A stretch of 23,093 bases of DNA from Planctomycetota bacterium (GTDB taxonomy: Bacteria > Planctomycetota > SZUA-567 > H5-PLA8), in contig JAPLOD010000620.1 in assembly GCA_026692735.1 (NCBI GenBank), positions 1 to 23,093 of the forward strand, read 5' to 3'. Made by a program: the position numbers and the translations under genes. The stretch's first letter is position 1. Each line of letters starts with the position of its first letter. Below the pieces are notes generated by a model that was not told the DNA's origin, did not search any database, and saw nothing but the letters and a program-made list of their open reading frames with translations. This document shows, in pieces, positions 14,222-22,802 of the stretch.

Positions 14222-14726
14222 CGTGAAGGTTCCCGCCCGCGTGGCCGGCACCGCCGCTCCCAGACCGCGGCGGGCGGCGTTTTGCAGATGCGGCCCCCAG
14301 CTCATGTTTAGTGTACCCCGTGGCTGCACGCAAGTCCCCGGTTCTTTACGGCAATCCCTCGATGCCGGCGCCGGCGTAAGTCGTGGCCGCGCAACGGCAA
14401 AGCGGTCTGCCGGGGTTGCGCAAAGGGGTTGCGCGTCCGCGGGCCTTTCAGCGCGCGAAAAAAAATTCCGTCAGAGGCCTTGATTTTGTGCAAGTCATGG
14501 GGTTTGCTGTACGTTTAGTTGATGGGAGGCGTGTGCTTTCAAATGGTTTGTTGGCGGTTGTGCATACGAGCAAGATCACGGTCCTTGTCGCGGAAGCAGA
14601 CAGGACAAGGCGCCGTGCTGCCCTTCATTGGGCATCGCCTCGTCATGCGCCCGTATAAAAACAGTGAAACGGATCGCGTGGGAGGCGCCGCACCCTAGGA
14701 AGCAAGGGACAAGTCAGAGAGTCCTC

Positions 14727-14763
14727 AGCCTTCCGGGGTGCGAACCTCGGAAGGCTTTTTGTT
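14727..14763 (+). terminator. Rho-independent terminator (stem CCTTCCG/CGGAAGG followed by CTTTTTGTT)
   Basis: AGCCTTCCG-GGGTGCGAACCT-CGGAAGGCT followed by TTTTTGTT on the + strand. In the minus orientation there is no T-tract after the stem. Confidence 0.5.
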
Positions 14764-14956
14764 GCGTCGCGGAAGGAGGCACAGGCAATCGGCAGGAACA
14801 GGCGCTGTGAGAAAGGCCCCAGGCGCGGCAACGCCTGAGGCCTGAAGAGAGCCCGAGCGTCTCCGGTGAAGAGATGAACACAGTGACAGCGTCACTGTGC
14901 GCGGGGCCTCTTTGTCTTCAGAACGTAGCGCGAAAGGAGGGACAGTCAACACGGAC

Positions 14957-15030
14957 GCGGATGTAGCTCAATGGCAGAGTGCGAGCGTGCCAGGCTCGAG
15001 ACGCGGGTCCAACTCCCGCCTTCCGCTCCA
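14957..15030 (+). tRNA. tRNA-Gly (anticodon GCC), CCA encoded
   Basis: Manual fold. Acceptor GCGGATG/CTTCCGC (1 mismatch). D-arm TAGCTCAATGGCAGAG. Anticodon stem CGAGC/GCTCG with loop GTGCCAG. T-arm GCGGGTCCAACTCCCGC. 74 nt. Confidence 0.6.
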
Positions 15031-15041
15031 AAGTTGCACGC

Positions 15042-15112
15042 GCCGCGGTGTCACGGCGGCCTGCCTCTCTTGTAAGGAGGCGGCGCGGGTTCGACTCCCG
15101 CCTGCGGCTCCA
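15042..15112 (+). tRNA. tRNA-Thr-like (anticodon TGT), 71 nt with reduced D-arm
   Basis: Acceptor GCCGCGG/CTGCGGC. Anticodon stem CCTCT/GGAGG with loop CTTGTAA. T-arm GCGGGTTCGACTCCCGC. Discriminator T plus CCA. D region only 15 nt and does not fold canonically. Confidence 0.4.
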
Positions 15113-15142
15113 ACGAACGAAGGAGGTGCTTTCGCAAGCGGC

Positions 15143-15214
15143 GCCGCAGTGTGATGGGTCACAAGCCTCTTTCGTAAAGAGGCGGCGCGGGTCCGATTCC
15201 TGCCTGCGGCCCCA
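15143..15214 (+). tRNA. tRNA-Thr-like (anticodon CGT), 72 nt with mini D-arm
   Basis: Acceptor GCCGCAG/CTGCGGC. D region TGTGATGGGTCACAAG (stem GTGA/TCAC, 4-nt loop). Anticodon stem CCTCT/AGAGG with loop TTCGTAA. T-loop TCCGATT. CCA encoded. Confidence 0.4.
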
Positions 15215-15233
15215 GAACGGAAGGCACTTCAGA

Positions 15234-15307
15234 TGCGGTGTGGCGAAACGGTATCGTGCCTGCCTGTTACGCAGGAGTTGGAGGTCCGAGTCCTCCCGCC
15301 GCAGCCA
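15234..15307 (+). tRNA. tRNA-Asn (anticodon GTT)
   Basis: Acceptor TGCGGTG/CGCCGCA. D-stem GCGA/TCGT. Anticodon stem CCTGC/GCAGG with loop CTGTTAC. T-arm GGAGGTCCGAGTCCTCC. Discriminator G plus CCA. Confidence 0.6.
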
Positions 15308-15319
15308 GATAACAGGAGT

Positions 15320-15395
15320 GGCCCTGTCGTCTAGCGGTTGAGGACGCCGGCCTTTCAAGCCGGAAACCGGGGTTCGAGTCCCCGTGGGGCTGCCA
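15320..15395 (+). tRNA. tRNA-Glu (anticodon TTC)
   Basis: Glu-type body (TCGTCTAGCGGTTGAGGAC, 3-bp D-stem). Anticodon stem CCGGC/GCCGG with loop CTTTCAA. T-arm CGGGGTTCGAGTCCCCG. Acceptor pairs with 3 G-U. CCA encoded. Confidence 0.55.
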
Positions 15396-15490
15396 ACGAT
15401 TGCGGATTGAGGATTGACGATTGCGGATTGGCGTGGGTGTGATTGGGGACGTGTGTGGGACAATCCGCGATCCGCAATCTGACATCCGAA
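15396..15490. repeat. tRNA-3'-flanking palindromic heptad-repeat element, copy 1
   Basis: 5' arm ACGATTGCGGATTGAGGATTGACGATTGCGGATTGG (tandem GATTGNG heptads). 3' arm CAATCCGCGATCCGCAATCTGACATCCGAA is the imperfect reverse complement. Begins 1 nt after the CCA of tRNA-Glu. Confidence 0.7.
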
Positions 15491-15506
15491 GTGGGCAAAG
15501 CGGAGC

Positions 15507-15581
15507 GTCTCTGTCGGCTAATCAGCAGGCCGCCAGATCCTCGATCTGGAAACGCGGGTGCGAACCCCGCCGGAGACGCCA
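15507..15581 (+). tRNA. Noncanonical tRNA (possible Glu, anticodon CTC); C33, no G18G19, T-loop TGCGAAC
   Basis: Acceptor GTCTCTG/CGGAGAC. D-loop AATCAGCA lacks GG. Anticodon stem CCAGA/TCTGG with loop TCCTCGA (C at position 33). T-arm GCGGGTGCGAACCCCGC (G55). CCA encoded. Confidence 0.4.
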
Positions 15582-15658
15582 ACGATTGCGGATTGCGGAT
15601 TGACGATTGCGGATTGGTTTGCCGGGCAATCCAAAATCGCAAATCCAAAATCCAAAAT
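15582..15658. repeat. Palindromic heptad-repeat element, copy 2 (divergent 3' arm with CCAAAAT repeats)
   Basis: ACGATTGCGGATTGCGGATTGACGATTGCGGATTGG ... CAATCCAAAATCGCAAATCCAAAATCCAAAAT. Starts 1 nt after the CCA of the preceding tRNA. Confidence 0.65.
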
Positions 15659-15663
15659 GGGAA

Positions 15664-15737
15664 GGGGCGATGGTGAAACAGGATCACACGACCTCCGCAC
15701 GGTCGCGTTTCGGGTGCAAGTCCCGATCGCTCCACCA
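15664..15737 (+). tRNA. tRNA-Ala (anticodon CGC) with G3-U70; C33 and G55 variants
   Basis: Acceptor GGGGCGA/TCGCTCC gives G3-T70, the Ala identity pair. D-stem GTGA/TCAC with loop AACAGGA. Anticodon stem CGACC/GGTCG with loop TCCGCAC. T-arm TCGGGTGCAAGTCCCGA. Discriminator A plus CCA. Confidence 0.5.
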
Positions 15738-15740
15738 CAC

Positions 15741-15829
15741 GGATAGCGAACCGGCCAAGTGGCCGGCACCGTCTCGAAAACGGTTGGTCGCTTAACCGCG
15801 ATGAGGACCAGGACCTCCGCTATCCGCCA
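15741..15829 (+). tRNA. Class II tRNA-Ser (anticodon CGA) with aberrant T-loop (ACCAGGA); possibly nonfunctional
   Basis: Perfect 7-bp acceptor GGATAGC/GCTATCC, discriminator G, CCA. Anticodon arm ACCGTCTCGAAAACGGT matches the bacterial Ser(CGA) arm. Long variable arm. The T-arm lacks TTCRA. 89 nt. Confidence 0.45.
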
Positions 15830-15871
15830 GATTCGAGGAGCAGAGGGCCGGCAAGACGCCGGCGGCACAAC

Positions 15872-15962
15872 GGAAGCGCGCCAGAGCCAGGAGAGCTGGG
15901 CCGGTTTGCTACACCGGGGTCTGAAAGATGATCAGCGGGTTCGAATCCCGCCGCTTCCGCCA
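15872..15962 (+). tRNA. Class II tRNA-Ser (anticodon GCT)
   Basis: Acceptor GGAAGCG/CGCTTCC perfect. D-stem CCAG/CTGG. Anticodon stem CCGGT/ACCGG with loop TTGCTAC. 17-nt variable arm. T-arm GCGGGTTCGAATCCCGC. Discriminator G plus CCA. 91 nt. Confidence 0.6.
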
Positions 15963-15979
15963 GAAAGGAGAACGCGAGT

Positions 15980-16055
15980 GCGTCCGTAGCTCGAGCGGCA
16001 GAGCAACCGGCTCTTAACCGGTTGGGTGTGGGTTCAAGCCCCACCGGGCGCACCA
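15980..16055 (+). tRNA. tRNA-Lys (anticodon CTT)
   Basis: Acceptor GCGTCCG/CGGGCGC. TAGCTCGAGCGGCAGAGC D-arm. Anticodon stem ACCGG/CCGGT with loop CTCTTAA. T-arm GTGGGTTCAAGCCCCAC. Discriminator A plus CCA. Confidence 0.65.
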
Positions 16056-16057
16056 GA

Positions 16058-16128
16058 TAATTGCGGGTTGAGGATCTCGGATTGTGGATTGGGCTGACGC
16101 GAACACGAATGCGGAATCCGCAATCCGA
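16058..16128. repeat. Palindromic heptad-repeat element, copy 3 (degenerate)
   Basis: TAATTGCGGGTTGAGGATCTCGGATTGTGGATTGGG ... GAATGCGGAATCCGCAATCCGAGG. Arms recognisable but more diverged than the other copies. Confidence 0.5.
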
Positions 16129-16137
16129 GGTTGGAGC

Positions 16138-16214
16138 GCCGCAGTAGCCGAACAGGCACAGGCGCCTGCCTTAGAAGCAGGAGAGTGTGGGTTCAAATCA
16201 CACCTGCGGCACCA
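16138..16214 (+). tRNA. tRNA of uncertain identity: class-I structure with anticodon TAG (a Leu anticodon on a short-variable-arm body)
   Basis: Acceptor GCCGCAG/CTGCGGC, discriminator A, CCA. Anticodon stem CCTGC/GCAGG with loop CTTAGAA. 5-nt variable loop. T-arm GTGGGTTCAAATCACAC with one G-A mismatch. Confidence 0.4.
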
Positions 16215-16300
16215 AACGCACGCGGACTGAGCGCGCGAGGCTTGGCGGTTTCCTCCCGATGGCGGGAGGTGGTAGCGGGGGCGATGCGAAACAGAAAGGA

Positions 16301-16376
16301 GCGTTCGTAGCTCGAGTGGCAGAGCAGCCGGCTTTTAACCGGCAGGGTGTGGGTTCGAGCCCCACCGAGCGCACCA
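16301..16376 (+). tRNA. tRNA-Lys (anticodon TTT)
   Basis: Near-duplicate of the Lys(CTT) gene. Anticodon stem GCCGG/CCGGC with loop CTTTTAA. T-arm GTGGGTTCGAGCCCCAC. CCA encoded. Confidence 0.65.
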
Positions 16377-16378
16377 AG

Positions 16379-16474
16379 TGATTGCGGATTGGGGATTGAC
16401 GATTGCGGATTGGCTCGTGATGGCACGAGCGGCGTGCTGTTCCAATCCACAATCCGAAATCCGCAATCCGCAAT
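16379..16474. repeat. Palindromic heptad-repeat element, copy 4 (different central segment)
   Basis: GTGATTGCGGATTGGGGATTGACGATTGCGGATTGG-CTCGTGATGGCACGAGCGGCGTGCTG-TTCCAATCCACAATCCGAAATCCGCAATCCGCAAT. Confidence 0.65.
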
Positions 16475-16480
16475 GGAAGT

Positions 16481-16554
16481 TGCCGGGTCGGCCAGCGGTA
16501 GGCCGCCTGACTCTGACTCAGGAAAGCGGGGTTCGAATCCCTGCCCGGCAACCA
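16481..16554 (+). tRNA. tRNA-Gln (anticodon CTG)
   Basis: U1-A72 acceptor TGCCGGG/CCCGGCA. D-stem GGCC/GGCC. Anticodon stem CCTGA/TCAGG with loop CTCTGAC. T-arm CGGGGTTCGAATCCCTG. CCA encoded. Confidence 0.6.
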
Positions 16555-16577
16555 GAACCAGGAGGAGAGTGCTTCGC

Positions 16578-16649
16578 GCGGTCGGAGTGTTCACGGCGGC
16601 ACGCAACCCTTCCAAGGTTGAGGAGCGGGTTCGACTCCTGCCGGCCGCA
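16578..16649 (+). tRNA. tRNA-Gly (anticodon TCC), CCA not encoded
   Basis: Acceptor GCGGTCG/CGGCCGC. Anticodon stem CAACC/GGTTG with loop CTTCCAA. T-arm GCGGGTTCGACTCCTGC. 3' end ...CGGCCGC-A followed by CTT. Confidence 0.55.
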
Positions 16650-16661
16650 CTTAAGACCCAC

Positions 16662-16735
16662 TGGCCTGTCGTCCAGCGGGAGGACACTGGGCTTTGAACC
16701 CGGGGACCGAGGTTCGAATCCTCGCGGGCCAACCA
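16662..16735 (+). tRNA. tRNA-Gln (anticodon TTG)
   Basis: U1-A72 acceptor TGGCCTG/CGGGCCA. Glu/Gln-type D-arm TCGTCCAGCGGGAGGAC. Anticodon loop CTTTGAA. T-arm CGAGGTTCGAATCCTCG. CCA encoded. Confidence 0.6.
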
Positions 16736-16775
16736 GATGGGTGACGGTAAGCCTTTGTGGTGCGTGAGAAGTTGA

Positions 16776-16846
16776 CGGGCATTCGTTCCGGTTGAACGGG
16801 CGAGTCTTATAAACCCGCCGGCCAGGTTCAACTCCTGGATGCCCGA
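16776..16846 (+). pseudogene. tRNA-like element / probable tRNA pseudogene (good acceptor and T-arm, no foldable anticodon arm)
   Basis: Perfect acceptor CGGGCAT/ATGCCCG. D-stem GTTC/GAAC. T-arm CCAGGTTCAACTCCTGG. The anticodon region GGCGAGTCTTATAAACCCGCC gives only a 4-bp stem with a 13-nt loop. No CCA. Confidence 0.3.
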
Positions 16847-16864
16847 GATCGGCAACGGGGACCT

Positions 16865-16940
16865 CGGGGCGTAGCGTAGCGGCGAACGCGCCTGCGTCGG
16901 GAGCAGGAGAACGCTGGTTCGAATCCAGTCGCCCCGACCA
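16865..16940 (+). tRNA. tRNA-Pro (anticodon CGG)
   Basis: C1-G72 acceptor CGGGGCG/CGCCCCG. Anticodon stem CCTGC/GCAGG with loop GTCGGGA (G37). T-arm GCTGGTTCGAATCCAGT. Discriminator A plus CCA. Confidence 0.65.
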
Positions 16941-16963
16941 GACTAGGGAGGTGAAGAGGGAAA

Positions 16964-17041
16964 CGGGATGTAGCTCAGTTTGCGCAGAGCGCCTGGCTTG
17001 GAACCAGGAGGGCGTCGGTTCGAATCCGGCCATCCCGACCA
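16964..17041 (+). tRNA. tRNA-Pro (anticodon TGG)
   Basis: C1-G72 acceptor CGGGATG/CATCCCG. D-arm TAGCTCAGTTTGCGCAGAGC. Anticodon stem CCTGG/CCAGG with loop CTTGGAA. T-arm GTCGGTTCGAATCCGGC. CCA encoded. Confidence 0.6.
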
Positions 17042-17104
17042 GAACAGAACGTGCTGAGTGGAGAGCGACGAGTAGCGAGTGACGGGGAGAGGAGGGGAGG
17101 GCGT

Positions 17105-17179
17105 TGGGCGGTGTTGTAGCGGGCTGCATGTCTGCCTGATACGCAGACGGTGGAGGTCCAACTCCTCCCCGCCCAACCA
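17105..17179 (+). tRNA. tRNA-Ile (anticodon GAT), tentative
   Basis: Acceptor TGGGCGG/CCGCCCA. Anticodon stem TCTGC/GCAGA with loop CTGATAC. T-arm GGAGGTCCAACTCCTCC. D-stem imperfect. CCA encoded. Confidence 0.5.
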
Positions 17180-17201
17180 GAACGGGAAGCGCTGACGTTG
17201 T

Positions 17202-17276
17202 GTTGACCTCAGTGTAACGGCCGCACGCGAGAATGTGAGTCTCGAGGCACGGGTTCAACTCCCGTAGGTCAACCCA
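17202..17276 (+). tRNA. tRNA-His (anticodon GTG) with encoded G-1 and C73
   Basis: G-1 precedes acceptor TTGACCT/AGGTCAA; discriminator C (bacterial His signature). D-stem GTGT/GCAC. Anticodon stem CGAGA/TCTCG with loop ATGTGAG. T-arm ACGGGTTCAACTCCCGT. CCA encoded. Confidence 0.65.
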
Positions 17277-17278
17277 GA

Positions 17279-17367
17279 CGATTGCGGATTGATGATTGCG
17301 GATTGGGTTGGGTGTGATTGATGACGCGCGACGGCCAATCCGCAATCGTCAATCCGAAATTCGCAAT
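17279..17367. repeat. Palindromic heptad-repeat element, copy 5 (canonical)
   Basis: ACGATTGCGGATTGATGATTGCGGATTGGGTTGGGTGTGATTGATGACGCGCGACGGCCAATCCGCAATCGTCAATCCGAAATTCGCAAT. Starts 1-2 nt after the CCA of tRNA-His. Confidence 0.75.
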
Positions 17368-17373
17368 AAGAGG

Positions 17374-17449
17374 GGCCGCGTGGCCGAGCAGCGAAGGCGT
17401 CCGCCTGCAGAGCGGAAGAGCGCGGGTGCGAGTCCCGCCGCGGCCTCCA
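17374..17449 (+). tRNA. tRNA-Cys (anticodon GCA); T-loop TGCGAGT (G55), D-loop without GG
   Basis: Acceptor GGCCGCG/CGCGGCC. Discriminator T, the Cys identity U73. Anticodon stem TCCGC/GCGGA with loop CTGCAGA. T-arm GCGGGTGCGAGTCCCGC. CCA encoded. Confidence 0.6.
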
Positions 17450-17450
17450 G

Positions 17451-17518
17451 CGATTGCGGATTGGGCTGGGTGTGATTGATGACGCGCGACGGCCAATCCG
17501 CAATCGTCAATCGGCAAT
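17451..17518. repeat. Palindromic heptad-repeat element, copy 6 (short 5' arm)
   Basis: CGATTGCGGATTGGGCTGGGTGTGATTGATGACGCGCGACGGCCAATCCGCAATCGTCAATCGGCAAT. Confidence 0.7.
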
Positions 17519-17525
17519 GGGGAAC

Positions 17526-17602
17526 GTTCCCGAAGGCGAAGAAGTGGAGCCGCCACCCTGTCACGGTGGAGGAAGCCGGTGCGACTCCGGTCGGGAGCGC
17601 CA
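17526..17602 (+). tRNA. tRNA-Asp (anticodon GTC); T-loop TGCGACT (G55)
   Basis: Acceptor GTTCCCG/CGGGAGC. Discriminator G. Anticodon stem CCACC/GGTGG with loop CTGTCAC (canonical Asp loop). T-arm GCCGGTGCGACTCCGGT. CCA encoded. Confidence 0.65.
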
Positions 17603-17604
17603 GA

Positions 17605-17701
17605 ACGATTGTGGATTGATGATTGCGGATTGCGGATTGGGTTGGGTGTGATTGATGACGCGCGAGGACCAATCCGCAATCGTCAATCGGCAATCCGAAA
17701 T
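17605..17701. repeat. Palindromic heptad-repeat element, copy 7
   Basis: ACGATTGTGGATTGATGATTGCGGATTGCGGATTGGGTTGGGTGTGATTGATGACGCGCGAGGACCAATCCGCAATCGTCAATCGGCAATCCGAAAT. Confidence 0.75.
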
Positions 17702-17706
17702 GAGGA

Positions 17707-17782
17707 AGCGGGTGGCTAGGCCTGGTGGTCTGGCGGGTTTCATAAGCCTGCAAGGGTGGTTCGATTCCACTGCCCGTTACCA
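17707..17782 (+). tRNA. tRNA-Met (anticodon CAT; elongator, initiator or Ile2 not distinguishable)
   Basis: Acceptor AGCGGGT/GCCCGTT (with G-U pairs). D-stem CTAG/CTGG. Anticodon stem CGGGT/GCCTG (3 WC + 2 GU) with loop TTCATAA. T-arm GGTGGTTCGATTCCACT. Discriminator A plus CCA. Confidence 0.5.
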
Positions 17783-17784
17783 GG

Positions 17785-17880
17785 CGATTGGGGATTGATG
17801 ATTGCGGATTGCGGATTGGGCTGGGTGTGATTGATGACGCGCGAAAGCCAATCTGCAATCGGCAATCCGCAATCCGAAAT
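17785..17880. repeat. Palindromic heptad-repeat element, copy 8
   Basis: GCGATTGGGGATTGATGATTGCGGATTGCGGATTGGGCTGGGTGTGATTGATGACGCGCGAAAGCCAATCTGCAATCGGCAATCCGCAATCCGAAAT. Confidence 0.75.
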
Positions 17881-17886
17881 GAGGAC

Positions 17887-17960
17887 GGCCGCTTCGTCCA
17901 ACGGGAGGACACCAGTCCTACACACTGGGGACGAAGGTTCGATTCCTTCAGCGGCCACCA
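17887..17960 (+). tRNA. Glu/Gln-type tRNA body with anticodon TAC (Val) and C33; identity uncertain
   Basis: Perfect acceptor GGCCGCT/AGCGGCC. TCGTCCAACGGGAGGAC D-arm. Anticodon stem CCAGT/ACTGG with loop CCTACAC. T-arm GAAGGTTCGATTCCTTC. Discriminator A plus CCA. Confidence 0.4.
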
Positions 17961-18076
17961 GAAAGGAGACAGCGCAAGAGATTCGATGCCGCCGGGACCA
18001 GTGGCGCGCTTCGCCTCACCCAGTGATCGGCGCGGCGTGTTCCATGAAGGATTGTGACGAAGGCGGTGTCGGAAAA

Positions 18077-18151
18077 GGGGATGTAGCTCAACGGCAGAGC
18101 GCCGGGGATTGGCCCCGGAGGTTGCGGGTTCGAGTCCCGTCATTCCTGCCA
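18077..18151 (+). tRNA. tRNA-like gene of uncertain identity (anticodon loop GATTGGC has A at position 33; alternatively a 6-bp stem with 5-nt loop)
   Basis: Acceptor GGGGATG/CATTCCT (with G-U pairs). TAGCTCAACGGCAGAGC D-arm. Stem CCGGG/CCCGG. T-arm GCGGGTTCGAGTCCCGT. Discriminator G plus CCA. Body resembles the Gly(GCC) gene at 14957. Confidence 0.35.
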
Positions 18152-18224
18152 GGATGGCTAGCTCAGGAGGTAGAGCACCGAGCTCATAACTCGGACGTTG
18201 CGGGTTCGACTCCCGCGCCAACTG
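18152..18224 (+). tRNA. tRNA-Met (anticodon CAT), CCA not encoded; begins immediately after the CCA of the previous tRNA
   Basis: Acceptor GGATGGC/GCCAACT (one A-A mismatch at 3-70). TAGCTCAGGAGGTAGAGC D-arm. Anticodon stem CCGAG/CTCGG with canonical loop CTCATAA. T-arm GCGGGTTCGACTCCCGC. 3' end G followed by CCG. Confidence 0.55.
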
Positions 18225-18565
18225 CCGCCTTGAAAGCGGCTCGTAAACCAGGCTGGAGGGGGGCGGACGTTGCACCTGCCCGCCGGGACCGGACGCCCGT
18301 ACAGGCCCGATCCCGGCAGCACGCGACGGCGCCCTGAAGCTCGCGGATTCGCTCCGGCCCAAATCGCGGGACGTTCCTCGCGAACGCACTGGTCCACACG
18401 ACAGCGCGGGAGCGCGCGAACCGAACGCGAAAGTAGGCCGCAGCTCAAGTTGTGCTCCGCGCTGTTCGGTGTGGCGGGACATAGCTCCGCCTCCCGAAGG
18501 CCACAACGAAGAGATCAGACGGGCGACACAAGGGATCGCCCAACGAGGACGAGGAGGGACGAAAC

Positions 18566-19690
18566 ATGGTGGCGATGGGAGTGATGGTGGGCATGCGCAA
18601 GTTTAAGGTGAGGGCGCATGAGCGCGGCTTGCTGTTCAGCGACAACGAGTTCCAGGTCTTGCTCGAGCCGGGCCGCCACTGGTTCTTCGACCCGCTCTTC
18701 AAGATCAGGGTGGACGTGGTCTCGGTGCGCAACGTGTGGCTCAAGCACAGGGACCTGGACGTGATCGCCAAGTCGGGGGCGTTGGAGGGCCAGGCGCAGG
18801 TCGTGGACCTGAAGGACAACGAGCGCGCGCTGTTCTGGGTTGACGGCCGCTTTGAGGCTGTCCTCAAGCCCGGCCTGCACGCGCTGTGGACGGTCTTCCA
18901 CGACGTCAAGGTCGAGGTCGTGGACGCGCGCGCCGTGCGGTTCGAGCATGAGGGCCTGGCCGTGATCCTGAAGTCCGAGGGCGCGGGCGAGGCGTTCGAT
19001 GTGTTCAACGTGGAAGAGGGCCACGCCGGCCTCTTCTTCAAGGACGGCGAGCACAAGGCCACGCTCTCGCCCGGCGTGCACGCCTTCTGGAAGGGCCAGG
19101 GCAAGGTGAAGCTGTACCACGTGGACCTGCGTGAGCAGGTCTGCGACGTGGCCGGCCAGGAGATCATGACCGCCGATAAGGTCACGCTCCGTCTCAACGC
19201 AGTGGCGACGTACCGCGTTGTTAATGGGCTCAAGGCCGTGGCTGAAGTCGAGGACTACCGCCAGGCGCTGTACCGCGAAGCGCAGCTCGCGCTGCGCGCG
19301 GTGATCGGGACGCGCGAGCTGGATGCGCTGCTGGCGGAGAAGGACGCGGTGGCAAAGGAGCTTGAGGGCGTCCTCAAGAACCGTGCGGCCGCGCTTGGCC
19401 TGGAGGTCACGGCGCTGGGCATCAGGGACATCATCCTGCCCGGCGAGATGAAGGACCTGATGAACAAGGTCACCGAGGCCCGGAAGGCCGCCGAGGCGGC
19501 ACTGATCACGCGCCGGGAGGAGACGGCCGCGATGAGGATGCAGGCCAACACGGCCAAGATCCTCGAGACCAGCCCGACGCTGATGAGGATCCGCGAACTG
19601 GAGACCCTCGAGAAGGTTGTCGCCAAGGCCAACCTGCAGGTGGTGCTCGCGGAGAAGGGTCTTGCGGATCGTGTCATGAAGCTGCTGTGA
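18566..19690 (+). CDS. SPFH/band-7 (stomatin/prohibitin/flotillin-like) domain protein
   Basis: 374 aa. ATG at 18566 with GGAGGG 8 nt upstream. The central region carries the SPFH core with a C-terminal coiled-coil rich in E/K/A (...ITRREETAAMRMQANTAKILETSP...). Located between the two tRNA blocks on the same strand. Confidence 0.85.
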   Translation: MVAMGVMVGMRKFKVRAHERGLLFSDNEFQVLLEPGRHWFFDPLFKIRVDVVSVRNVWLKHRDLDVIAKSGALEGQAQVVDLKDNERALFWVDGRFEAVLKPGLHALWTVFHDVKVEVVDARAVRFEHEGLAVILKSEGAGEAFDVFNVEEGHAGLFFKDGEHKATLSPGVHAFWKGQGKVKLYHVDLREQVCDVAGQEIMTADKVTLRLNAVATYRVVNGLKAVAEVEDYRQALYREAQLALRAVIGTRELDALLAEKDAVAKELEGVLKNRAAALGLEVTALGIRDIILPGEMKDLMNKVTEARKAAEAALITRREETAAMRMQANTAKILETSPTLMRIRELETLEKVVAKANLQVVLAEKGLADRVMKLL

Positions 19691-19804
19691 GTGCGGCGGC
19701 TTGAACAAGGCAGTTGAAAGGAGGTGATCCGTTATCTCGTCGGCGTGCGAGGCTCCCGGGGAGGCAGCGTTCGGTCTGGCTCCTCGGGGGGCTCGCCGTC
19801 ACCC

Positions 19805-19890
19805 GCTCCCGTGGCGGAATGCAGACGCGGCCGGTTCAAACCCGGCCAGCCGTGAAGGCTGTGGAGGTGCGAATCCTCCCGGGAGCACCA
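19805..19890 (+). tRNA. Class II tRNA-Leu (anticodon CAA); T-loop TGCGAAT (G55), D-loop without GG
   Basis: Acceptor GCTCCCG/CGGGAGC perfect. D-arm TGGCGGAATGCAGACGCG (Leu-type). Anticodon stem GCCGG/CCGGC with loop TTCAAAC. Variable-arm hairpin CAGCCGTGAAGGCTG. T-arm GGAGGTGCGAATCCTCC. Discriminator A plus CCA. 86 nt. Confidence 0.65.
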
Positions 19891-19892
19891 GG

Positions 19893-19988
19893 CGATTGCG
19901 GATTGGAGATTGAGGATTGCGGATTGGGTTGGGCGTGACCGACGGCGTGCGAAGGCCAATCCGCAATCGTCAATCTGCAATCCGAAAT
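19893..19988. repeat. Palindromic heptad-repeat element, copy 9
   Basis: GCGATTGCGGATTGGAGATTGAGGATTGCGGATTGGGTTGGGCGTGACCGACGGCGTGCGAAGGCCAATCCGCAATCGTCAATCTGCAATCCGAAAT. Confidence 0.75.
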
Positions 19989-19994
19989 GAAGGG

Positions 19995-20069
19995 GCTCTC
20001 GTAGCTCAAGGGATAGAGCGGCCGGCTTCTAACCGGCTGATCGGGGTCCGAGTCCTCGCGAGAGCGCCA
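19995..20069 (+). tRNA. tRNA-Arg (anticodon TCT)
   Basis: Acceptor GCTCTCG/CGAGAGC. TAGCTCAAGGGATAGAGC D-arm. Anticodon stem GCCGG/CCGGC with loop CTTCTAA. T-arm CGGGGTCCGAGTCCTCG. Discriminator G plus CCA. Confidence 0.65.
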
Positions 20070-20080
20070 GATTGAAGGAT

Positions 20081-20156
20081 GCTCCTGTCGCTCAATGGAA
20101 CAGGGCGCTGCTCTCCTAAGGCAGAGATCCGGGTTTGAGTCCCGGCAGGAGCGCCA
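20081..20156 (+). tRNA. tRNA-Arg (anticodon CCT)
   Basis: Acceptor GCTCCTG/CAGGAGC perfect. D-stem GCTC/GGGC. Anticodon stem CTGCT/GGCAG with loop CTCCTAA. T-arm CCGGGTTTGAGTCCCGG (T-loop TTTGAGT). Discriminator G plus CCA. Confidence 0.6.
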
Positions 20157-20158
20157 GG

Positions 20159-20254
20159 CGATTGCGGATTGACGATTGTGGATTGCGGATTGGGTTGGGC
20201 GTGACCGACGACGTGCGAAGGCCAATCCGCAATCGTCAATCTACAATCCGAAAT
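20159..20254. repeat. Palindromic heptad-repeat element, copy 10
   Basis: GCGATTGCGGATTGACGATTGTGGATTGCGGATTGGGTTGGGCGTGACCGACGACGTGCGAAGGCCAATCCGCAATCGTCAATCTACAATCCGAAAT. Confidence 0.75.
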
Positions 20255-20260
20255 GAGGGG

Positions 20261-20335
20261 GCTCTCGTAGCTCAAGGGATAGAGCCGCTGGCTTCGAACC
20301 AGCAGATCGGGGTCCAAGTCCTCGCGAGAGCGCCA
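20261..20335 (+). tRNA. tRNA-Arg (anticodon TCG)
   Basis: Paralog of the Arg(TCT) gene with an identical acceptor and D-arm. Anticodon stem GCTGG/CCAGC with loop CTTCGAA. T-arm CGGGGTCCAAGTCCTCG. CCA encoded. Confidence 0.6.
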
Positions 20336-20337
20336 GG

Positions 20338-20412
20338 TCGCCCGTGGTGTAGCAGAGCGCACACGACCGTGCGAAGGTCGAGGACCGGGTGCGAGTCCCG
20401 GCGGGCGGACCA
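20338..20412 (+). tRNA. tRNA-Arg (anticodon GCG), tentative; T-loop TGCGAGT (G55), D-loop without GG
   Basis: Acceptor TCGCCCG/CGGGCGG. D-stem GTGT/GCAC with loop AGCAGAGC. Anticodon stem CGACC/GGTCG with loop GTGCGAA. T-arm CCGGGTGCGAGTCCCGG. Discriminator A plus CCA. Starts 2 nt after the previous tRNA. Confidence 0.5.
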
Positions 20413-20414
20413 GA

Positions 20415-20509
20415 CGATTGCGGATTGATGATTGTGGATTGCGGATTGGATTGGGTGTGACCGATGACGTGCGAAGGCCAGTCCGCAATCGGCAATCTGC
20501 AATCCGCAA
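20415..20509. repeat. Palindromic heptad-repeat element, copy 11
   Basis: CGATTGCGGATTGATGATTGTGGATTGCGGATTGGATTGGGTGTGACCGATGACGTGCGAAGGCCAGTCCGCAATCGGCAATCTGCAATCCGCAAT. Confidence 0.75.
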
Positions 20510-20516
20510 TAGGAAT

Positions 20517-20592
20517 GGGGCTTGAGCAGGTGTGGTCATTGCGCCCGGCTGAAAACCGGGAGAACTCGGTTCGATCCCGAGGGGCCCCACCA
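20517..20592 (+). tRNA. tRNA-Phe (anticodon GAA)
   Basis: Acceptor GGGGCTT/GGGCCCC (2 G-U). D-stem GCAG/TTGC. Anticodon stem CCCGG/CCGGG with loop CTGAAAA. T-arm CTCGGTTCGATCCCGAG. Discriminator A plus CCA. Confidence 0.65.
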
Positions 20593-20594
20593 GA

Positions 20595-20675
20595 CGATTG
20601 CGGATTGATGATTTTGGATTGCGGATTTGGTTGGGTGTGACCGATGACGTGCGGAGGCCAATCCGCAATCCACAA
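20595..20675. repeat. Palindromic heptad-repeat element, copy 12 (short 3' arm)
   Basis: CGATTGCGGATTGATGATTTTGGATTGCGGATTTGGTTGGGTGTGACCGATGACGTGCGGAGGCCAATCCGCAATCCACAAT. Confidence 0.7.
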
Positions 20676-20682
20676 TGGGAAC

Positions 20683-20771
20683 GGGGGTGGATGTGCGGAC
20701 TGGGAGCCGGGCGGGCCTGTAAAGCCCGCGCTCGATGAAGCTGGGAGGTTCGATTCCTCACGCCCCCACCA
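20683..20771 (+). tRNA. Class II tRNA-Tyr (anticodon GTA)
   Basis: Acceptor GGGGGTG/CGCCCCC. Anticodon stem CGGGC/GCCCG with canonical Tyr loop CTGTAAA. Long variable arm CGCTCGATGAAGCTG. T-arm GGAGGTTCGATTCCTCA. Discriminator A plus CCA. 89 nt. Confidence 0.6.
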
Positions 20772-20773
20772 GA

Positions 20774-20875
20774 CGATTGCGGATTGATGATTTTGGATTG
20801 CGGATTGGGTTGGGTGTGACCGATGACGTGCGGACGCCAATCCGCAATCCGAAATCCACAATCCAAAATCCAAAA
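20774..20875. repeat. Palindromic heptad-repeat element, copy 13 (3' arm extended with CCAAAAT units)
   Basis: CGATTGCGGATTGATGATTTTGGATTGCGGATTGGGTTGGGTGTGACCGATGACGTGCGGACGCCAATCCGCAATCCGAAATCCACAATCCAAAATCCAAAAT. Confidence 0.75.
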
Positions 20876-20881
20876 TAGGCC

Positions 20882-20955
20882 AAGGCGCGACGGCCCGGCG
20901 GCCTGTGCGGTCTCCAAAACCGCTCGACAGGGCTCGACACCCTGGCGCCTTGCCA
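20882..20955 (+). tRNA. tRNA-Trp (anticodon CCA)
   Basis: A1-U72 acceptor AAGGCGC/GCGCCTT perfect. Discriminator G. Anticodon stem GCGGT/ACCGC with canonical Trp loop CTCCAAA. T-arm CAGGGCTCGACACCCTG (C54). D-arm irregular. CCA encoded. Confidence 0.55.
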
Positions 20956-20959
20956 CTTG

Positions 20960-21053
20960 AGTGCGGATTGATGATTGCGGAGTGCGGATTGGGATGGGTG
21001 TGACCGCTGACGTGCGGACGCCAATCCGCAATCCGAAATCCACAATCCGCAAT
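20960..21053. repeat. Palindromic heptad-repeat element, copy 14 (5' end degenerate); lies directly upstream of the HNH gene
   Basis: GTGCGGATTGATGATTGCGGAGTGCGGATTGGGATGGGTGTGACCGCTGACGTGCGGACGCCAATCCGCAATCCGAAATCCACAATCCGCAAT. Ends 1 nt before the GGGAGGA RBS of the HNH CDS. Confidence 0.7.
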
Positions 21054-21065
21054 GGGAGGACAGCC

Positions 21066-21656
21066 GTGGTGCTGAACGATGCAACGCTGGTTCTGAACAA
21101 GCACTGGGTGCCGGTGGATTTCACCACGGTGTTGGACGCGCTATGCAAGCTGTACGCGGGTTCTGCGCGCGCCATCAAGCCTGACGATTACTCCGTGCAC
21201 GACTTCGAATCGTGGGCGCAGTTGAAGGTTGCCGAGGGCGCTCCCTGCGTGCGCACGGCCACCATCGCCATACCCGTGCCCGAGGTGATCATCCTGGCAC
21301 ACTATGGCCGCGTTCCAGACAGGGGCCTGGCGTTCTCGCGCGGCAATCTGTTCAGGCGTGACCGTTACACGTGTCAGTACTGCGGCAGGCGCCCGGGCAC
21401 CGCGGAACTCACGATTGACCACGTCAGCCCGCGCAGCCGCGGTGGCATCTCAAGCTGGACCAACTGCGTCGTTGCCTGCTTGAAGTGCAACTCCAGGAAG
21501 GCCAACAGGACGGCGGCGGAAGCCGGCCTTGTGCTGCGCCGGCAGCCTGCGAAGCCGGAGTGGAGCCCGCGGCTGGTTGTGGCTCGGATTCCGTGCAAGG
21601 CGAGCTGGGAGAAGTTCGTCTCGGACGCCTACTGGAACGTGGAACTGAAGGAGTAA
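21066..21656 (+). CDS. HNH endonuclease family protein
   Basis: GTG at 21066 with GGGAGGA (21054-21060) 5-6 nt upstream. 196 aa. Contains CQYCG(20)LTIDHVSPRSRGG(10)NCVVACLKCNSRK, a zinc-finger-flanked H-N-H motif. The ORF-track N-terminal extension back to 20961 is translation of the upstream repeat (MRIDDCGVRIG...). Confidence 0.7.
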   Translation: MVLNDATLVLNKHWVPVDFTTVLDALCKLYAGSARAIKPDDYSVHDFESWAQLKVAEGAPCVRTATIAIPVPEVIILAHYGRVPDRGLAFSRGNLFRRDRYTCQYCGRRPGTAELTIDHVSPRSRGGISSWTNCVVACLKCNSRKANRTAAEAGLVLRRQPAKPEWSPRLVVARIPCKASWEKFVSDAYWNVELKE

Positions 21657-21673
21657 GCATAGTCTGAAGGTGG

Positions 21674-21700
21674 GGGCCGGATCGCGGGCAGCGGTCCGGC
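21674..21700. terminator. Intergenic hairpin between convergent HNH and transporter genes (possible bidirectional terminator)
   Basis: GGCCGGA-TCGCGGGCAGCGG-TCCGGCC: 7-bp GC-rich stem, 18 nt after the HNH stop and about 40 nt after the minus-strand gene stop. No clear U-tract, so confidence is modest. Confidence 0.4.
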
Positions 21701-21740
21701 CCTCAGCGCAAGCTCCGAGAAACCTTGAGCCCGCCGGGAC

Positions 21741-22802
21741 TCAGAGCGCTTCGCCCATGGCGTTGCCCTTGCCCAGGATGCATACGCCGATGATGAGTAT
21801 GACAATCCCGGCGACGATCCAGGCAATGCTCTGCCGGCTGGCGCCTTTCCATTCGCCGCTGCGGAAACCATGCACGTTGCCGACGATGATGGCGAACGAC
21901 ATGAACGCGGCGTAGCCAACCGAAATGCCCAGTGTGCCGAGGTTCGAGAAAGCCAGGCCGAAGAAAAGGATCGCGCCATCGTGCAGGAAGGCCATCGTGG
22001 CGGCCAGCAGCAGGACCAGGCCCACGCCCGGCTTGGCAAAGCTGGACCACGTCTTGTTCTTCGTGAGCTGGAAGCCGCAGTAGAGACACGATGACACCGC
22101 GCCGCCCCACAGGATCAACGCCATCACCGCGAACGCGGCGCGCCATGACGAGTTGCCGAAGTTCTCCGCTGCAACGGTCCCGACTTTGCCGGCAAAACTC
22201 GCCGCCACCGCGTAGCACGCGCACAAGATGCCGGAGACGAGGCCGATGATCACGCCGACGAGCATCCTCGGTCTACGCGCGTCGGTCTCGGAAGCCGCTG
22301 CATCGGTTTTGCTTTCCTTGATGCTCTGTTCCTTCAGCAGGGCTGCCTTGCCGCACACGATCACGCCGAGCACGCACACGGCGACCCCCGCCAGGATCAC
22401 GTAGCCGGCAGGTGTCCCGACCTTGTCGGCGTTGTGGATGAGCATCGGCGCCATGGAGCCGAAGATGATCTGCGCGCCGTAGTTGATCGAATACGCGAGC
22501 GACAGGCCGATGAACGCAAAACTCATCCCCAGCGTCATGGAGCCGAGGCCCCAGAGGAAGCCGAAGACCAGGGGCATGATAAGAGCCTCGACGCCCGCGG
22601 TGGAGTAGATGGCGTAGAACTCGTTCACCAGGAGCGGACCGAAGATGACCGGGATCAGCACGGTGACGAAAAGGAAGAACGGCCCCCACAGGTTCTCCCA
22701 CGCCATGCTTTTGGGAGCGTACTTGCTTGGCAGTCCAAATGAGCCGCCGCAGATCGCGCCCAGAAGCACAAAGACGAACCCCCAGATCATCGCTGTAGTC
22801 AT
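21741..22802 (-). CDS. RhaT-family sugar:H+ symporter (L-rhamnose-proton symporter-like, DMT superfamily)
   Basis: Start chosen at the ATG at 22800-22802 (MTTAMIWGFVFVLLGAICGGSFGLPSKYAPK...); the ORF-track N-terminal 25 aa look non-native. About 10 predicted TMs. N-terminal motifs align with E. coli RhaT (IG..SA..YAPFKKV..WSWE..W and FG.MWG.GN.NYG). Confidence 0.75.
   Translation of the reverse strand: MTTAMIWGFVFVLLGAICGGSFGLPSKYAPKSMAWENLWGPFFLFVTVLIPVIFGPLLVNEFYAIYSTAGVEALIMPLVFGFLWGLGSMTLGMSFAFIGLSLAYSINYGAQIIFGSMAPMLIHNADKVGTPAGYVILAGVAVCVLGVIVCGKAALLKEQSIKESKTDAAASETDARRPRMLVGVIIGLVSGILCACYAVAASFAGKVGTVAAENFGNSSWRAAFAVMALILWGGAVSSCLYCGFQLTKNKTWSSFAKPGVGLVLLLAATMAFLHDGAILFFGLAFSNLGTLGISVGYAAFMSFAIIVGNVHGFRSGEWKGASRQSIAWIVAGIVILIIGVCILGKGNAMGEAL

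Follow-up and report, generated by a model that had tools for sequence, protein, structure and literature searches.

The D-loop nucleotide G18 and the T-loop nucleotide U55 of transfer RNA (tRNA) are described as universally conserved (PMC7912444). What does it mean, then, when several genes of one tRNA cluster carry G at position 55? The question is raised by contig JAPLOD010000620.1 of a metagenome-assembled genome of a Planctomycetota bacterium (assembly GCA_026692735.1), a stretch of 23,093 nucleotides that was analysed as a whole and is called the window here. Its positions 14957-20955 (5,999 bp) hold 34 tRNA or tRNA-like genes, which all lie on the plus strand and together cover all 20 amino acids (Table 1). 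We consider it probable that this array belongs to a horizontally spread class of long tRNA arrays (L-arrays) that constitute a spare tRNA set, and that its G55 genes have undergone a compensated swap to an A18:G55 elbow pair. As read from the genes, the near-universal G18 with U55 (or pseudouridine-55) is replaced by A18 with G55, and G19:C56, U54-A58, the purine at position 57 (R57) and G53:C61 are kept.

G55 and A18 in the window and in related arrays

Six of the 34 genes carry G55, namely those for Glu(CUC) at 15507, Ala(CGC) at 15664, Cys(GCA) at 17374, Asp(GUC) at 17526, Leu(CAA) at 19805 and Arg(GCG) at 20338. An initial annotation of this DNA had counted seven tRNAs with a T54-G55-C56 T-loop; the motif is real, and the higher count came from listing the gene at 15507 twice. 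Re-folding with covariance models, which had been set beforehand as the decisive check, did not restore U55 or U33. When 15507, 17374 and 17526 are aligned with the Rfam tRNA model, GGUGCGA falls on the consensus GGUUCGA, and G occupies the U55 column with the highest posterior probability; a covariance model trained on array tRNAs (R1) places G at 55 in all six genes. There is practically no chance that the stems have been assigned one position out of register and that U55 and U33 are really canonical, as ARAGORN, the Rfam model and the array-trained model all put G at 55. Similarly, C33, which had been noted at 15507, 15664 and 17887, is placed there by ARAGORN in all three genes (loops UCCUCGA, UCCGCAC and CCUACAC) and by an Rfam alignment column for 15507 only. 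Across the window, the canonical pairing of U55 with G18 is missing from a number of genes, with position 55 being G in six and C in six tRNA genes (seven with the degenerate gene at 15741). Architectures of the 8/4 or 9/3 type known from allo-tRNAs were ruled out, since the stems have the standard 7 and 5 bp.

The same annotation held that four of these genes lack the D-loop G18G19. Here the alignments divide the claim: G18 is replaced by A, and G19 is kept. A18 with G19 is found by alignment in the Glu, Ala, Cys and Arg(GCG) genes, and in the Asp gene by Rfam. In the Rfam alignment the D-loops read AAUcAGCA (Glu), AGCAGCgA (Cys) and AAGaAGUgGA (Asp), with A in the G18 column and G in the G19 column, and the array-trained model likewise assigns A18 and G19 to the D-loops of Ala (AACAGGA) and Arg(GCG) (TAGCAGAGCG). 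All six G55 genes carry A at or next to position 18.

Pair counts in related arrays bear out the proposal that a compensating D-loop change accompanies the altered T-loop. To guard against register errors, a covariance model trained on 28 array tRNAs of equal length was searched against 31 loci, and alignment of the 150 best hits gave 141 unique rows. Positions 18 and 55 form the pair G:U in 94 of these, A:G in 37 and G:C in nine, and the combinations A:U and G:G do not occur at all. The mutual information between the two positions ranks 18th of 2415 column pairs, and every one of the 17 pairs above it is a Watson-Crick stem pair.

The same coupling is seen among 490 unique plus-strand tRNAs called by ARAGORN at a relaxed threshold in 30 array loci. 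A D-loop GG accompanies 351 of the 356 TTC loops and is absent with 76 of the 86 TGC loops, AG taking its place in 72 of these 76; the association has a Fisher p of ~1e-67. Of the ten seeming exceptions, in which TGC occurs with GG, most read cAGG, which corresponds to A18-G19-G20. A viral replicate comprising 647 unique tRNAs from contigs with a linked HNH endonuclease gene gives GG with 536 of 543 TTC loops; 47 of its 57 G55-C56 loops occur without GG (p ~3e-52 for the association), and the other ten all contain AG in a suitable place. The triplets CGC and GGC at positions 54-56 are also accompanied by a D-loop AG.

Both states of the 18:55 pair are present in 32 of 51 anticodon families, and they differ between orthologues. 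For example, seven arrays have G55 in their Thr(UGU) gene where the window has U55, and Arg(GCG) has G55 in the window and in the related loci L003 and L087 and U55 elsewhere. Judging from this distribution, many switches must have happened, each on both sides of the pair. The share of A18/G55 genes is high in some HNH-linked arrays, reaching 19/38 in L121, 15/27 in L114, 8/9 in L115, 8/13 in L092, 8/12 in L175 and 12/27 in L177. The G55-rich array L121 also contains a class-I S-adenosylmethionine-dependent methyltransferase gene (Methyltransf_24, positions 2933-3514), and its flanks gave no clear phage or host signal.

The neighbouring 19:56 pair likewise covaries in some cases. T-loops with U56 (TTT) go with G-A in the D-loop, and those with G56 (TTG) go with G-C. 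Arg tRNAs in L001 and L003 combine TTT with a D-loop G-A, corresponding to A19:U56. In L087 (1585-1659) and L081 (8851-8926), a TTG T-loop occurs with the D-loops AACGCACA and GAGCGCCTTGA, which have G18 and C19 and thus a reversed C19:G56 pair. Separately, the Pro(UGG) gene at 16964-17041 has the best Rfam score in the window (68.8 bits) and a D-loop, AGTTTGCGCA, without GG despite a canonical TTC T-loop; its orthologue in L001 (6833-6910) is likewise without GG and has a TTC T-loop.

Integrity of the G55 genes and nature of the other variants

The G55 genes have on average 20.8 stem pairs, 92% of them Watson-Crick, and 1.07 mismatch positions compared with 1.53 in U55 genes. A58 and R57 are each present in 86 of 86. 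In the model alignment, stems are 97.6% paired as against 61.6% in shuffles, G53:C61 is found in 141 of 141 tRNAs and position pair 19:56 is G:C in 139 of 141. The features of a canonical cloverleaf, with stems of 7/4/5/5 bp, G19:C56, U54-A58 and G53:C61, are therefore in place. Identity elements are kept in the window, including G3:U70 in Ala, U73 in Cys, G-1 with C73 in His and A73 in Leu. Furthermore, the Ala, Cys, Asp and Arg(GCG) genes keep G55 in orthologues from relatives whose HNH proteins are 64-78% identical. Broken stems, lost identity elements and a lack of conservation in orthologues, which mark a tRNA pseudogene, do not characterize the six G55 genes; they are present or plausible for the genes at 15741, 18077 and 18152. 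Because stems, A58, R57 and identity elements are intact and several genes stay G55 in orthologues, the G55 genes are most likely compensated tRNAs rather than decay products, predicted to fold correctly and to be chargeable with a rewired elbow.

Several other departures from the canonical form recur beyond the window. C33 occurs in 61 of 485 array tRNAs and reappears in Glu(CUC), Ala(CGC), Val(UAC) and Leu(GAG) of distant arrays; in Val(UAC) it is common to the window, L001, L031, L047 and L113. Canonical U33 is also missing from 18077, which has A33 or a 5-nt loop depending on how the loop is read. C55 (T-loop TCC) is found together with G18 and G19 in the genes at 14957, 15143, 15234, 17105, 19995 and 20261, where a G18:C55 pair could form, and the same state is present in relatives and in 6 of the 29 tRNAs of the phage contig L172. 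T-loop variants seen in single genes of the window are U56 (20081) and C54 (20882). The two short Thr genes do have reduced D-arms, as had been noticed.

The gene at 16138 had been singled out as a class-I tRNA with the Leu anticodon UAG, and this description holds. It is 74 nt long plus CCA and has a 5-nt variable loop in place of the long variable arm of bacterial class-II tRNA-Leu, but its A73 and its D-arm, with the D-loop GAACAGGCACA, are of the Leu type. Among Leu genes, class I makes up 44 of 68 in the bacterial and metagenome loci; the viral loci have 39 such genes out of 82. Every Leu anticodon is represented among the 44, of which 41 have A73 and 41 have a D-loop of 10-11 nt. Because the class-I type spans all Leu anticodons with A73 and a Leu-type D-loop, the simpler reading of these sequences is that 16138 encodes a leucine tRNA and not a recoding device.

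A few genes do appear broken. That at 15741 has the T-loop ACCAGGA, as had been stated; its minimum-energy fold is a class-II cloverleaf, it was missed by ARAGORN, Rfam and the array-trained model, and no orthologue was found in close relatives. The gene at 18077, in which a 6-bp anticodon stem closes the 5-nt loop AUUGG, abuts 18152 without a spacer. Because the positional orthologues in L001 bear the different anticodons UAC and GGA, the comparison is read as anticodon turnover or decay at this spot. The element at 16776, once described as having no anticodon arm, turns out to have one, with the anticodon UAU and a single A.C mismatch. By their sequences, 15741, 18077, 18152 and perhaps 16776 look degenerate, and they are a minority. 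C33, C55, the A19:U56 or C19:G56 pairs of relatives, the short-arm tRNA-Leu and tRNA-Ile(UAU) likewise appear to be conserved traits of the array family. Thus, the supposed mixture of intact, variant and decayed genes survives for the few degenerate members, and the majority of the variant genes are not copies in decay but conserved forms.

Certain observations weigh against a compensated elbow swap. The D-loop of the Asp gene is left as an insertion by the array-trained model, leaving A18 to be assigned only by Rfam, and the register of the Leu(CAA) D-loop (GAATGCAGA) is ambiguous. Related arrays share ancestry, and the Fisher p-values consequently overstate independence. The genes that deviate most are prone to be missed by both ARAGORN and covariance models. 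Finally, a published study of planctomycete clusters takes their lower Cove scores as a sign of 'partially degraded tRNAs' (PMC4807772), and defects seem apparent in the T-loop of 15741, in the anticodon loop of 18077 and in 18152, which has acceptor mismatches and no CCA. The last two points, together with the low Rfam scores of several G55 genes (41-50 bits), favour the view that the cluster is a cryptic, horizontally acquired relic whose G55, C33, C55, short arms and odd loops arose by random decay. We regard this as unlikely. Random loss is not expected to produce a clean partition into A18:G55 and G18:U55 without mixed states, the stems are as good as in canonical members, and decay leaves unexplained why identity elements are kept and why the same state is found in orthologues of diverged arrays. 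The low covariance-model scores of G55 genes follow simply from the penalties that such models place on changes in invariant columns.

A further alternative is that some members, above all the class-I UAG tRNA, carry a non-cognate amino acid or decode differently. It draws on the long variable arm that bacterial tRNA-Leu normally has and 16138 lacks, and on the aberrant acid-gel mobility of the Phe(GAA) and Ile(GAU) tRNAs of the array in the cyanobacterium Anabaena, which raised the possibility of misacylation (PMC8421152). In that organism UUC codons were tested and mistranslation was not detected (PMC8421152). The class-I counts given above, which extend to all Leu anticodons, also leave altered identity unsupported for the UAG tRNA, as does the Anabaena array, in which four tRNA-Leu are of class I and only 3 of 26 array tRNAs were uncharged. 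In addition, the leucyl-tRNA synthetase of Escherichia coli is not known to need the variable arm. Altered identity or recoding is thus very unlikely, and compensated, cognate tRNAs remain our preferred explanation.

Layout of the array, its spacers and its linked genes

Gene counts depend on the method used. ARAGORN reports 30 tRNA genes at its default threshold, all on the plus strand between 14957 and 20955, missing those at 15507, 15664, 17526 and 15741; lowering the threshold (-ps90) adds Glu(CUC) and Ala(CGC). With the Rfam tRNA model (RF00005), 24 genes reach the gathering score, and relaxing the threshold brings the total to 27. The model detects Asp(GUC) and leaves 15664 and 15741 unreported even at E = 10. 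R1 recovers 32 of the 34 genes and nothing convincing elsewhere in the 23 kb. A CCA end is encoded in nearly all genes.

L-arrays, also called tRNA array units (Tran et al. 2016; Santamaria-Gomez et al. 2021), have been defined by a minimum of 20 genes and of two genes per kb (PMC4758250), and have been characterized as horizontally spread, linked to HNH genes and listed for Planctomycetes (PMC8421152). With 34 genes in 5,999 bp, the window exceeds this density. Its genes share one orientation and are separated by gaps of 0-110 bp, except around an internal protein gene, as in a potential operon; an HNH gene homologous to those of the Anabaena and Mycolicibacterium arrays is linked; and the distribution of the array is patchy, in keeping with horizontal spread.

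On either side, the array is bordered by genes typical of a chromosome, for TPR giants, ExbB/ExbD, a TAT oxidoreductase and RhaT; phage structural genes are absent from the 23-kb window. In the region 14300-21800, no sigma-70-like consensus promoter was found, and terminator-like sites occur at chance level, bar one. This is a strong hairpin of 13 bp followed by a T-run on the plus strand at 14727-14756, ~200 bp upstream of the first tRNA gene. The hairpin implies a separate short transcript within 14480-14760 and an array promoter between 14760 and 14956.

Table 1 Features of the tRNA array in the window, with the methods and scores that support them. R1, array-trained covariance model; L001 and similar labels, related loci.
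Feature	Position	Strand	Support
tRNA-Gly(GCC), T-loop TCC (C55), CCA encoded; first array gene	14957..15030	+	ARAGORN; Rfam 56.3 bits
tRNA-Thr(UGU), short, aberrant D-arm, U55	15042..15112	+	Rfam 39.2 bits; R1 49.8 bits; ARAGORN alternative start 15033
tRNA-Thr(CGU), 4-nt D-loop, C55	15143..15214	+	ARAGORN, Rfam, folding
tRNA-Asn(GUU), C55	15234..15307	+	ARAGORN, Rfam
tRNA-Glu(UUC), canonical loops	15320..15395	+	ARAGORN, Rfam
Spacer hairpin copy 1, GATTGCG-heptad arms	15396..15506	+	
tRNA-Glu(CUC): A18, G19, G55, C33	15507..15581	+	Rfam 49.7 bits and alignment; ARAGORN -ps90; R1 57 bits
Spacer hairpin copy 2	15582..15663	+	
tRNA-Ala(CGC): G3:U70, A18, G19, G55, C33	15664..15737	+	ARAGORN -ps90; R1 65.6 bits; L001 orthologue also TGC
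tRNA-Ser(CGA)-like class-II cloverleaf, T-loop ACCAGGA; probably degenerate	15741..15829	+	minimum-energy fold z = -3.9
tRNA-Ser(GCU), class II	15872..15962	+	ARAGORN
tRNA-Lys(CUU)	15980..16055	+	ARAGORN, Rfam
Spacer hairpin copy 3	16056..16137	+	
Class-I tRNA, Leu anticodon UAG, A73, 3-bp D-stem, 11-nt D-loop	16138..16214	+	Rfam 62.9 bits; ARAGORN
tRNA-Lys(UUU)	16301..16376	+	ARAGORN, Rfam
Spacer hairpin copy 4	16377..16480	+	
tRNA-Gln(CUG)	16481..16554	+	ARAGORN, Rfam
tRNA-Gly(UCC), without encoded CCA	16578..16650	+	ARAGORN, Rfam
tRNA-Gln(UUG)	16662..16735	+	ARAGORN, Rfam
tRNA-Ile(UAU)-like, A.C mismatch in anticodon stem, without CCA	16776..16846	+	ARAGORN; R1 35.8 bits; positional orthologue L001 6640-6710
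tRNA-Pro(CGG)	16865..16940	+	ARAGORN, Rfam
tRNA-Pro(UGG), D-loop AGTTTGCGCA without GG	16964..17041	+	ARAGORN, Rfam
tRNA-Ile(GAU), C55	17105..17179	+	ARAGORN, Rfam
tRNA-His(GUG), G-1 and C73	17202..17276	+	ARAGORN, Rfam; G-1 read from sequence
Spacer hairpin copy 5	17277..17373	+	-53.3 kcal/mol, z = -9.2
tRNA-Cys(GCA): U73, A18, G19, G55	17374..17449	+	Rfam 58.9 bits and alignment; ARAGORN; L006 orthologue also TGC
Spacer hairpin copy 6, shortened	17450..17525	+	
tRNA-Asp(GUC): G55; A18 and G19 by Rfam alignment	17526..17602	+	Rfam 41.7 bits; R1 40.2 bits; orthologues in L001, L006
Spacer hairpin copy 7	17603..17706	+	
tRNA-Met(CAU) type, unusual D-arm	17707..17782	+	ARAGORN; R1 30.3 bits
Spacer hairpin copy 8	17783..17886	+	
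tRNA-Val(UAC), C33	17887..17960	+	ARAGORN, Rfam
tRNA-like gene, 6-bp anticodon stem, 5-nt loop AUUGG; probably non-decoding	18077..18151	+	ARAGORN, Rfam, folding
tRNA-Met(CAU)-like, acceptor mismatches, without CCA	18152..18226	+	ARAGORN, Rfam, folding
SPFH/Band-7 (slipin/HflK-like) protein gene inside array	18566..19690	+	Pfam Band_7 1.3e-33
tRNA-Leu(CAA), class II, G55, D-loop GAATGCAGA	19805..19890	+	ARAGORN; Rfam 47.5 bits
Spacer hairpin copy 9	19891..19994	+	-57 kcal/mol, z = -9.2
tRNA-Arg(UCU), C55	19995..20069	+	ARAGORN, Rfam
tRNA-Arg(CCU), T-loop TTT (U56)	20081..20156	+	ARAGORN, Rfam
Spacer hairpin copy 10	20157..20260	+	
tRNA-Arg(UCG), C55	20261..20335	+	ARAGORN, Rfam
tRNA-Arg(GCG): A18, G19, G55	20338..20412	+	Rfam 41.2 bits; R1 57.7 bits and alignment; L003, L087 orthologues TGC
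Spacer hairpin copy 11	20413..20516	+	-54.1 kcal/mol, z = -7.6
tRNA-Phe(GAA)	20517..20592	+	ARAGORN, Rfam
Spacer hairpin copy 12	20593..20682	+	
tRNA-Tyr(GUA), class II	20683..20771	+	ARAGORN
Spacer hairpin copy 13	20772..20881	+	
tRNA-Trp(CCA), T-loop CTC (C54)	20882..20955	+	ARAGORN; R1 21.9 bits
Spacer hairpin copy 14, ends at HNH ribosome-binding site	20956..21065	+	
HNH endonuclease, 196 aa, array-linked family	21066..21656	+	

A spacer element of ~100 nt occurs in 14 copies between the tRNA genes (15396-21065). Its 5′ arm consists of tandem GATTGCG-type heptads, its 3′ arm is their complement, and the apex GGGTTGGGTGTGAYYGATGACGYGCGAAGGCC is conserved. Near-matches to GATTGCGGATTG number 62, all inside the array, where 0.19 are expected. 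The resulting hairpins have ~30 bp, and three of the four copies that were folded reach -53 to -57 kcal/mol (z = -7.5 to -9.2), the fourth being more degenerate (-38.5 kcal/mol, z = -1.9). Copies begin right after the CCA of the upstream gene, and all six G55 genes abut one. Only traces of the element remain in the closest relative, L001. It could be a processing site for RNase III or a small invasive palindrome.

The SPFH gene is kept inside the array in L001, L002 and L004, and L006 has a Band_7 fragment; an exact look-up of the protein matched no record. Its position suggests, by analogy, a meaningful rather than accidental placement and a functional link between SPFH proteins and arrays, because the TrcR stress regulon of Anabaena, to which the tRNA array belongs, also includes a slipin (SPFH) protein and the HNH gene all8564, alongside RtcB and a RimK-like gene (PMC10272220). 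A model of the window's HNH protein (pLDDT 88) matched only generic HNH domains of the Cas9/IscB/McrA type in a structure comparison, with no tRNA-specific match among solved structures. Assignment to a known defence system was not adopted: PADLOC gave only weak matches to PtuB-type HNH domains, and nothing for the SPFH protein.

Horizontal acquisition, which had been proposed at the outset, is supported by the homology of this HNH protein to those of other arrays and by the occurrence of the module between different flanks. Close relatives were taken from protein look-ups, and HNH scans of genomes and metagenomes gave at most 64% identity among the matches listed. Contigs with close HNH homologues (74-87% identity) show the order tRNAs, Band_7, tRNAs, HNH; one is flanked by A2M and succinate dehydrogenase genes, others by genes for glutamine synthetase and sulfate assimilation. 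More distant homologues (45-57%) lie in or beside arrays of 15-41 same-strand tRNA genes in metagenome-assembled genomes of Pirellulales, Thermoguttaceae, Planctomycetaceae and Solibacteraceae (Acidobacteria), in many metagenome contigs and in IMG/VR viral contigs. Most HNH loci are without an array among the matches listed. Encoded CCA separates two array subfamilies: it is present in nearly every gene of the window clade, L081, L087, L092, L113-L118, L121 and L129, and never in the Pirellulales-type arrays L019-L053, which have the HNH gene inside the array between His and Trp.

The HNH protein of the window is 37% identical to that of the array on the Mycolicibacterium plasmid pCBMA213_1 and 34% identical (tblastn, E = 3e-21) to the one encoded beside the trn operon of Anabaena PCC 7120, which we take to be all8564. 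Homologues also adjoin arrays in Virus Rctr197k (KX853510) and Tunturiibacter phage Tunturi_5. The closest viral HNH (57% identity) is found on the 102-kb IMG/VR contig L172, a true phage contig that has a major head protein gene (E = 5e-82) just upstream of a 29-tRNA array with four interspersed HNH genes. In Tunturi_5 (L171, 230157-250582), the HNH gene and a 26-tRNA array adjoin genes for a CCA-adding enzyme, an RtcB ligase and a RimK-like protein, and this gene set is that of the Anabaena translational-stress regulon. The array is phage-related and belongs to a class shared by bacterial chromosomes, plasmids and large phages.

Possible function and comparison with known tRNA arrays

By analogy with Anabaena, the array is probably supernumerary. 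It would be transcribed as one or a few polycistronic precursors, from which the ~30-bp spacer hairpins, RNase P and 3′ trimming would release the tRNAs. Those with A18:G55 are predicted to fold into the usual L-shape, with pseudouridine-55 and Gm18 being impossible. They may provide a spare pool when housekeeping tRNAs or translation are compromised, as in the homologous Anabaena array, which is silent, is induced by translational stress and has 23 of its 26 tRNAs aminoacylated in vivo (PMC8421152). The equivalent in phages would be the replacement of tRNAs destroyed by host nucleases, and phage tRNAs have been proposed or shown to escape host tRNases by loop changes (PMC10264068, PMC11555353, PMC13056530).

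Such escape raises the question of whether the A18:G55 elbow and C33 arose by neutral drift or were selected because they hide array tRNAs from a toxin, defence nuclease or modification enzyme that reads the elbow or loops. The module is also present in true phages, C33 recurs in the same isoacceptors of distant arrays, and the high G55 shares in L121, L114, L115, L175 and L177 are poorly explained by drift alone; those in L121, L115 and L177 hint at selection. However, most arrays have only one or two G55 genes, the linked HNH has a generic DNA-type fold and the window encodes no tRNase. To our knowledge, no search having been aimed at it, neither nucleases nor toxins are known to recognize G18 or pseudouridine-55, and none was identified in this analysis. 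Such an adaptive disguise is conceivable but on balance doubtful. A broader version, in which the A18:G55 elbow, C33 and the arm-less tRNA-Leu are a selected 'orthogonal' design of phage origin that escapes a putative host factor and retains function with ribosome, synthetase and EF-Tu, seems to us improbable. For that factor one may think of a toxin, a checkpoint that depends on modification or a defence nuclease directed at tRNAs; it would read the G18/pseudouridine-55 elbow, the anticodon loop or the long variable arm. If this were true, L-arrays would be nuclease-proof spare sets domesticated by bacteria for translational stress.

Under the preferred reading of a spare set with a compensated elbow swap, the implications concern the elbow itself. 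Few nucleotides in biology are as conserved as G18 and pseudouridine-55, which are regarded as invariable components of the elbow (PMC7912444). What is new here is a natural tRNA family with strictly coupled A18 and G55, which spans many isoacceptors in bacteria and phages and amounts to half or more of the genes in some arrays. This family is a ready-made test set for the need of the canonical pair and of the TruB and TrmH modifications, and orthogonal tRNAs could be built on its members as natural scaffolds. It would accordingly be wrong to discard array tRNAs as pseudogenes because they score low and have been called 'degenerate'. The arrays of planctomycetes, cyanobacteria, acidobacteria and phages are also joined in a single HNH-linked family with unusual tRNA designs in common, among them the arm-less tRNA-Leu.

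The array itself is not new, and the functional reading is an inference. The class has already been described in cyanobacteria, mycobacteria and Planctomycetes, and the HNH link, tRNA-Ile(UAU) and low-scoring members have all been published. No earlier description of the A18:G55 swap was found in the array papers or in the searchable literature, of which coverage was partial, and the novelty of the swap is therefore provisional.

The best-studied counterpart is the trn operon on plasmid delta of Anabaena (Nostoc) sp. PCC 7120, which is likewise a long same-strand array beside a homologous HNH gene. It shares with the window class-I tRNA-Leu, there with several anticodons, and contains one tRNA of the A18/G55 type, Glu(CUC), with the T-loop TGCAACT. 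Slipin/SPFH and HNH all8564 are co-regulated in Anabaena, and both gene types lie physically inside or beside the array in the window. In contrast to the window, the Anabaena array is plasmid-borne, has its HNH gene upstream, includes one G55 gene among 24 tRNAs found by ARAGORN, lacks the GATTGCG-heptad hairpin spacers and encodes CCA in only part of its genes. Induction and charging have been demonstrated for the Anabaena array.

The 'degenerate tRNA gene clusters' reported for planctomycetes in 2016 (Kim et al., PMC4807772) come from the same phylum, comprise many tRNA genes with low Cove scores, are thought to be horizontally acquired and are the exclusive location of tRNA-Ile(UAU), which the window shares. 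That study read low scores as degradation and did not report covariation of T-loop and D-loop, the T-loop being mentioned in neither text nor supplements, whereas the deviation in the window is compensated. Phage arrays (Rctr197k, Tunturi_5 and L172) resemble the window in having a homologous HNH (36-57% identity) in or beside the array and class-I tRNA-Leu, and L172 has six G55 and six C55 tRNAs, as does the window. They differ from the window in its chromosomal-type neighbours, such as TPR proteins, ExbB/ExbD and RhaT.

More remote parallels exist outside arrays. The consensus of the Tymovirus tRNA-like 3′ element (RF00233) has the T-loop UGCAACU and the D-loop CAGU, with G at the equivalent of position 55 and A-G in the D-loop, as in the G55 genes. 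Unlike these genes, it forms the 3′ end of a viral mRNA and has a pseudoknotted acceptor, and membership of that family was rejected, as hits in the window score 16-25 bits against a gathering score of 40, making this a structural parallel only. Mitochondrial and other reduced tRNAs also depart from the universal elbow nucleotides G18/G19 and U55/C56. Those tRNAs lose or weaken the elbow contact, whereas in the window both sides of the contact change in step and the T-loop is otherwise canonical.

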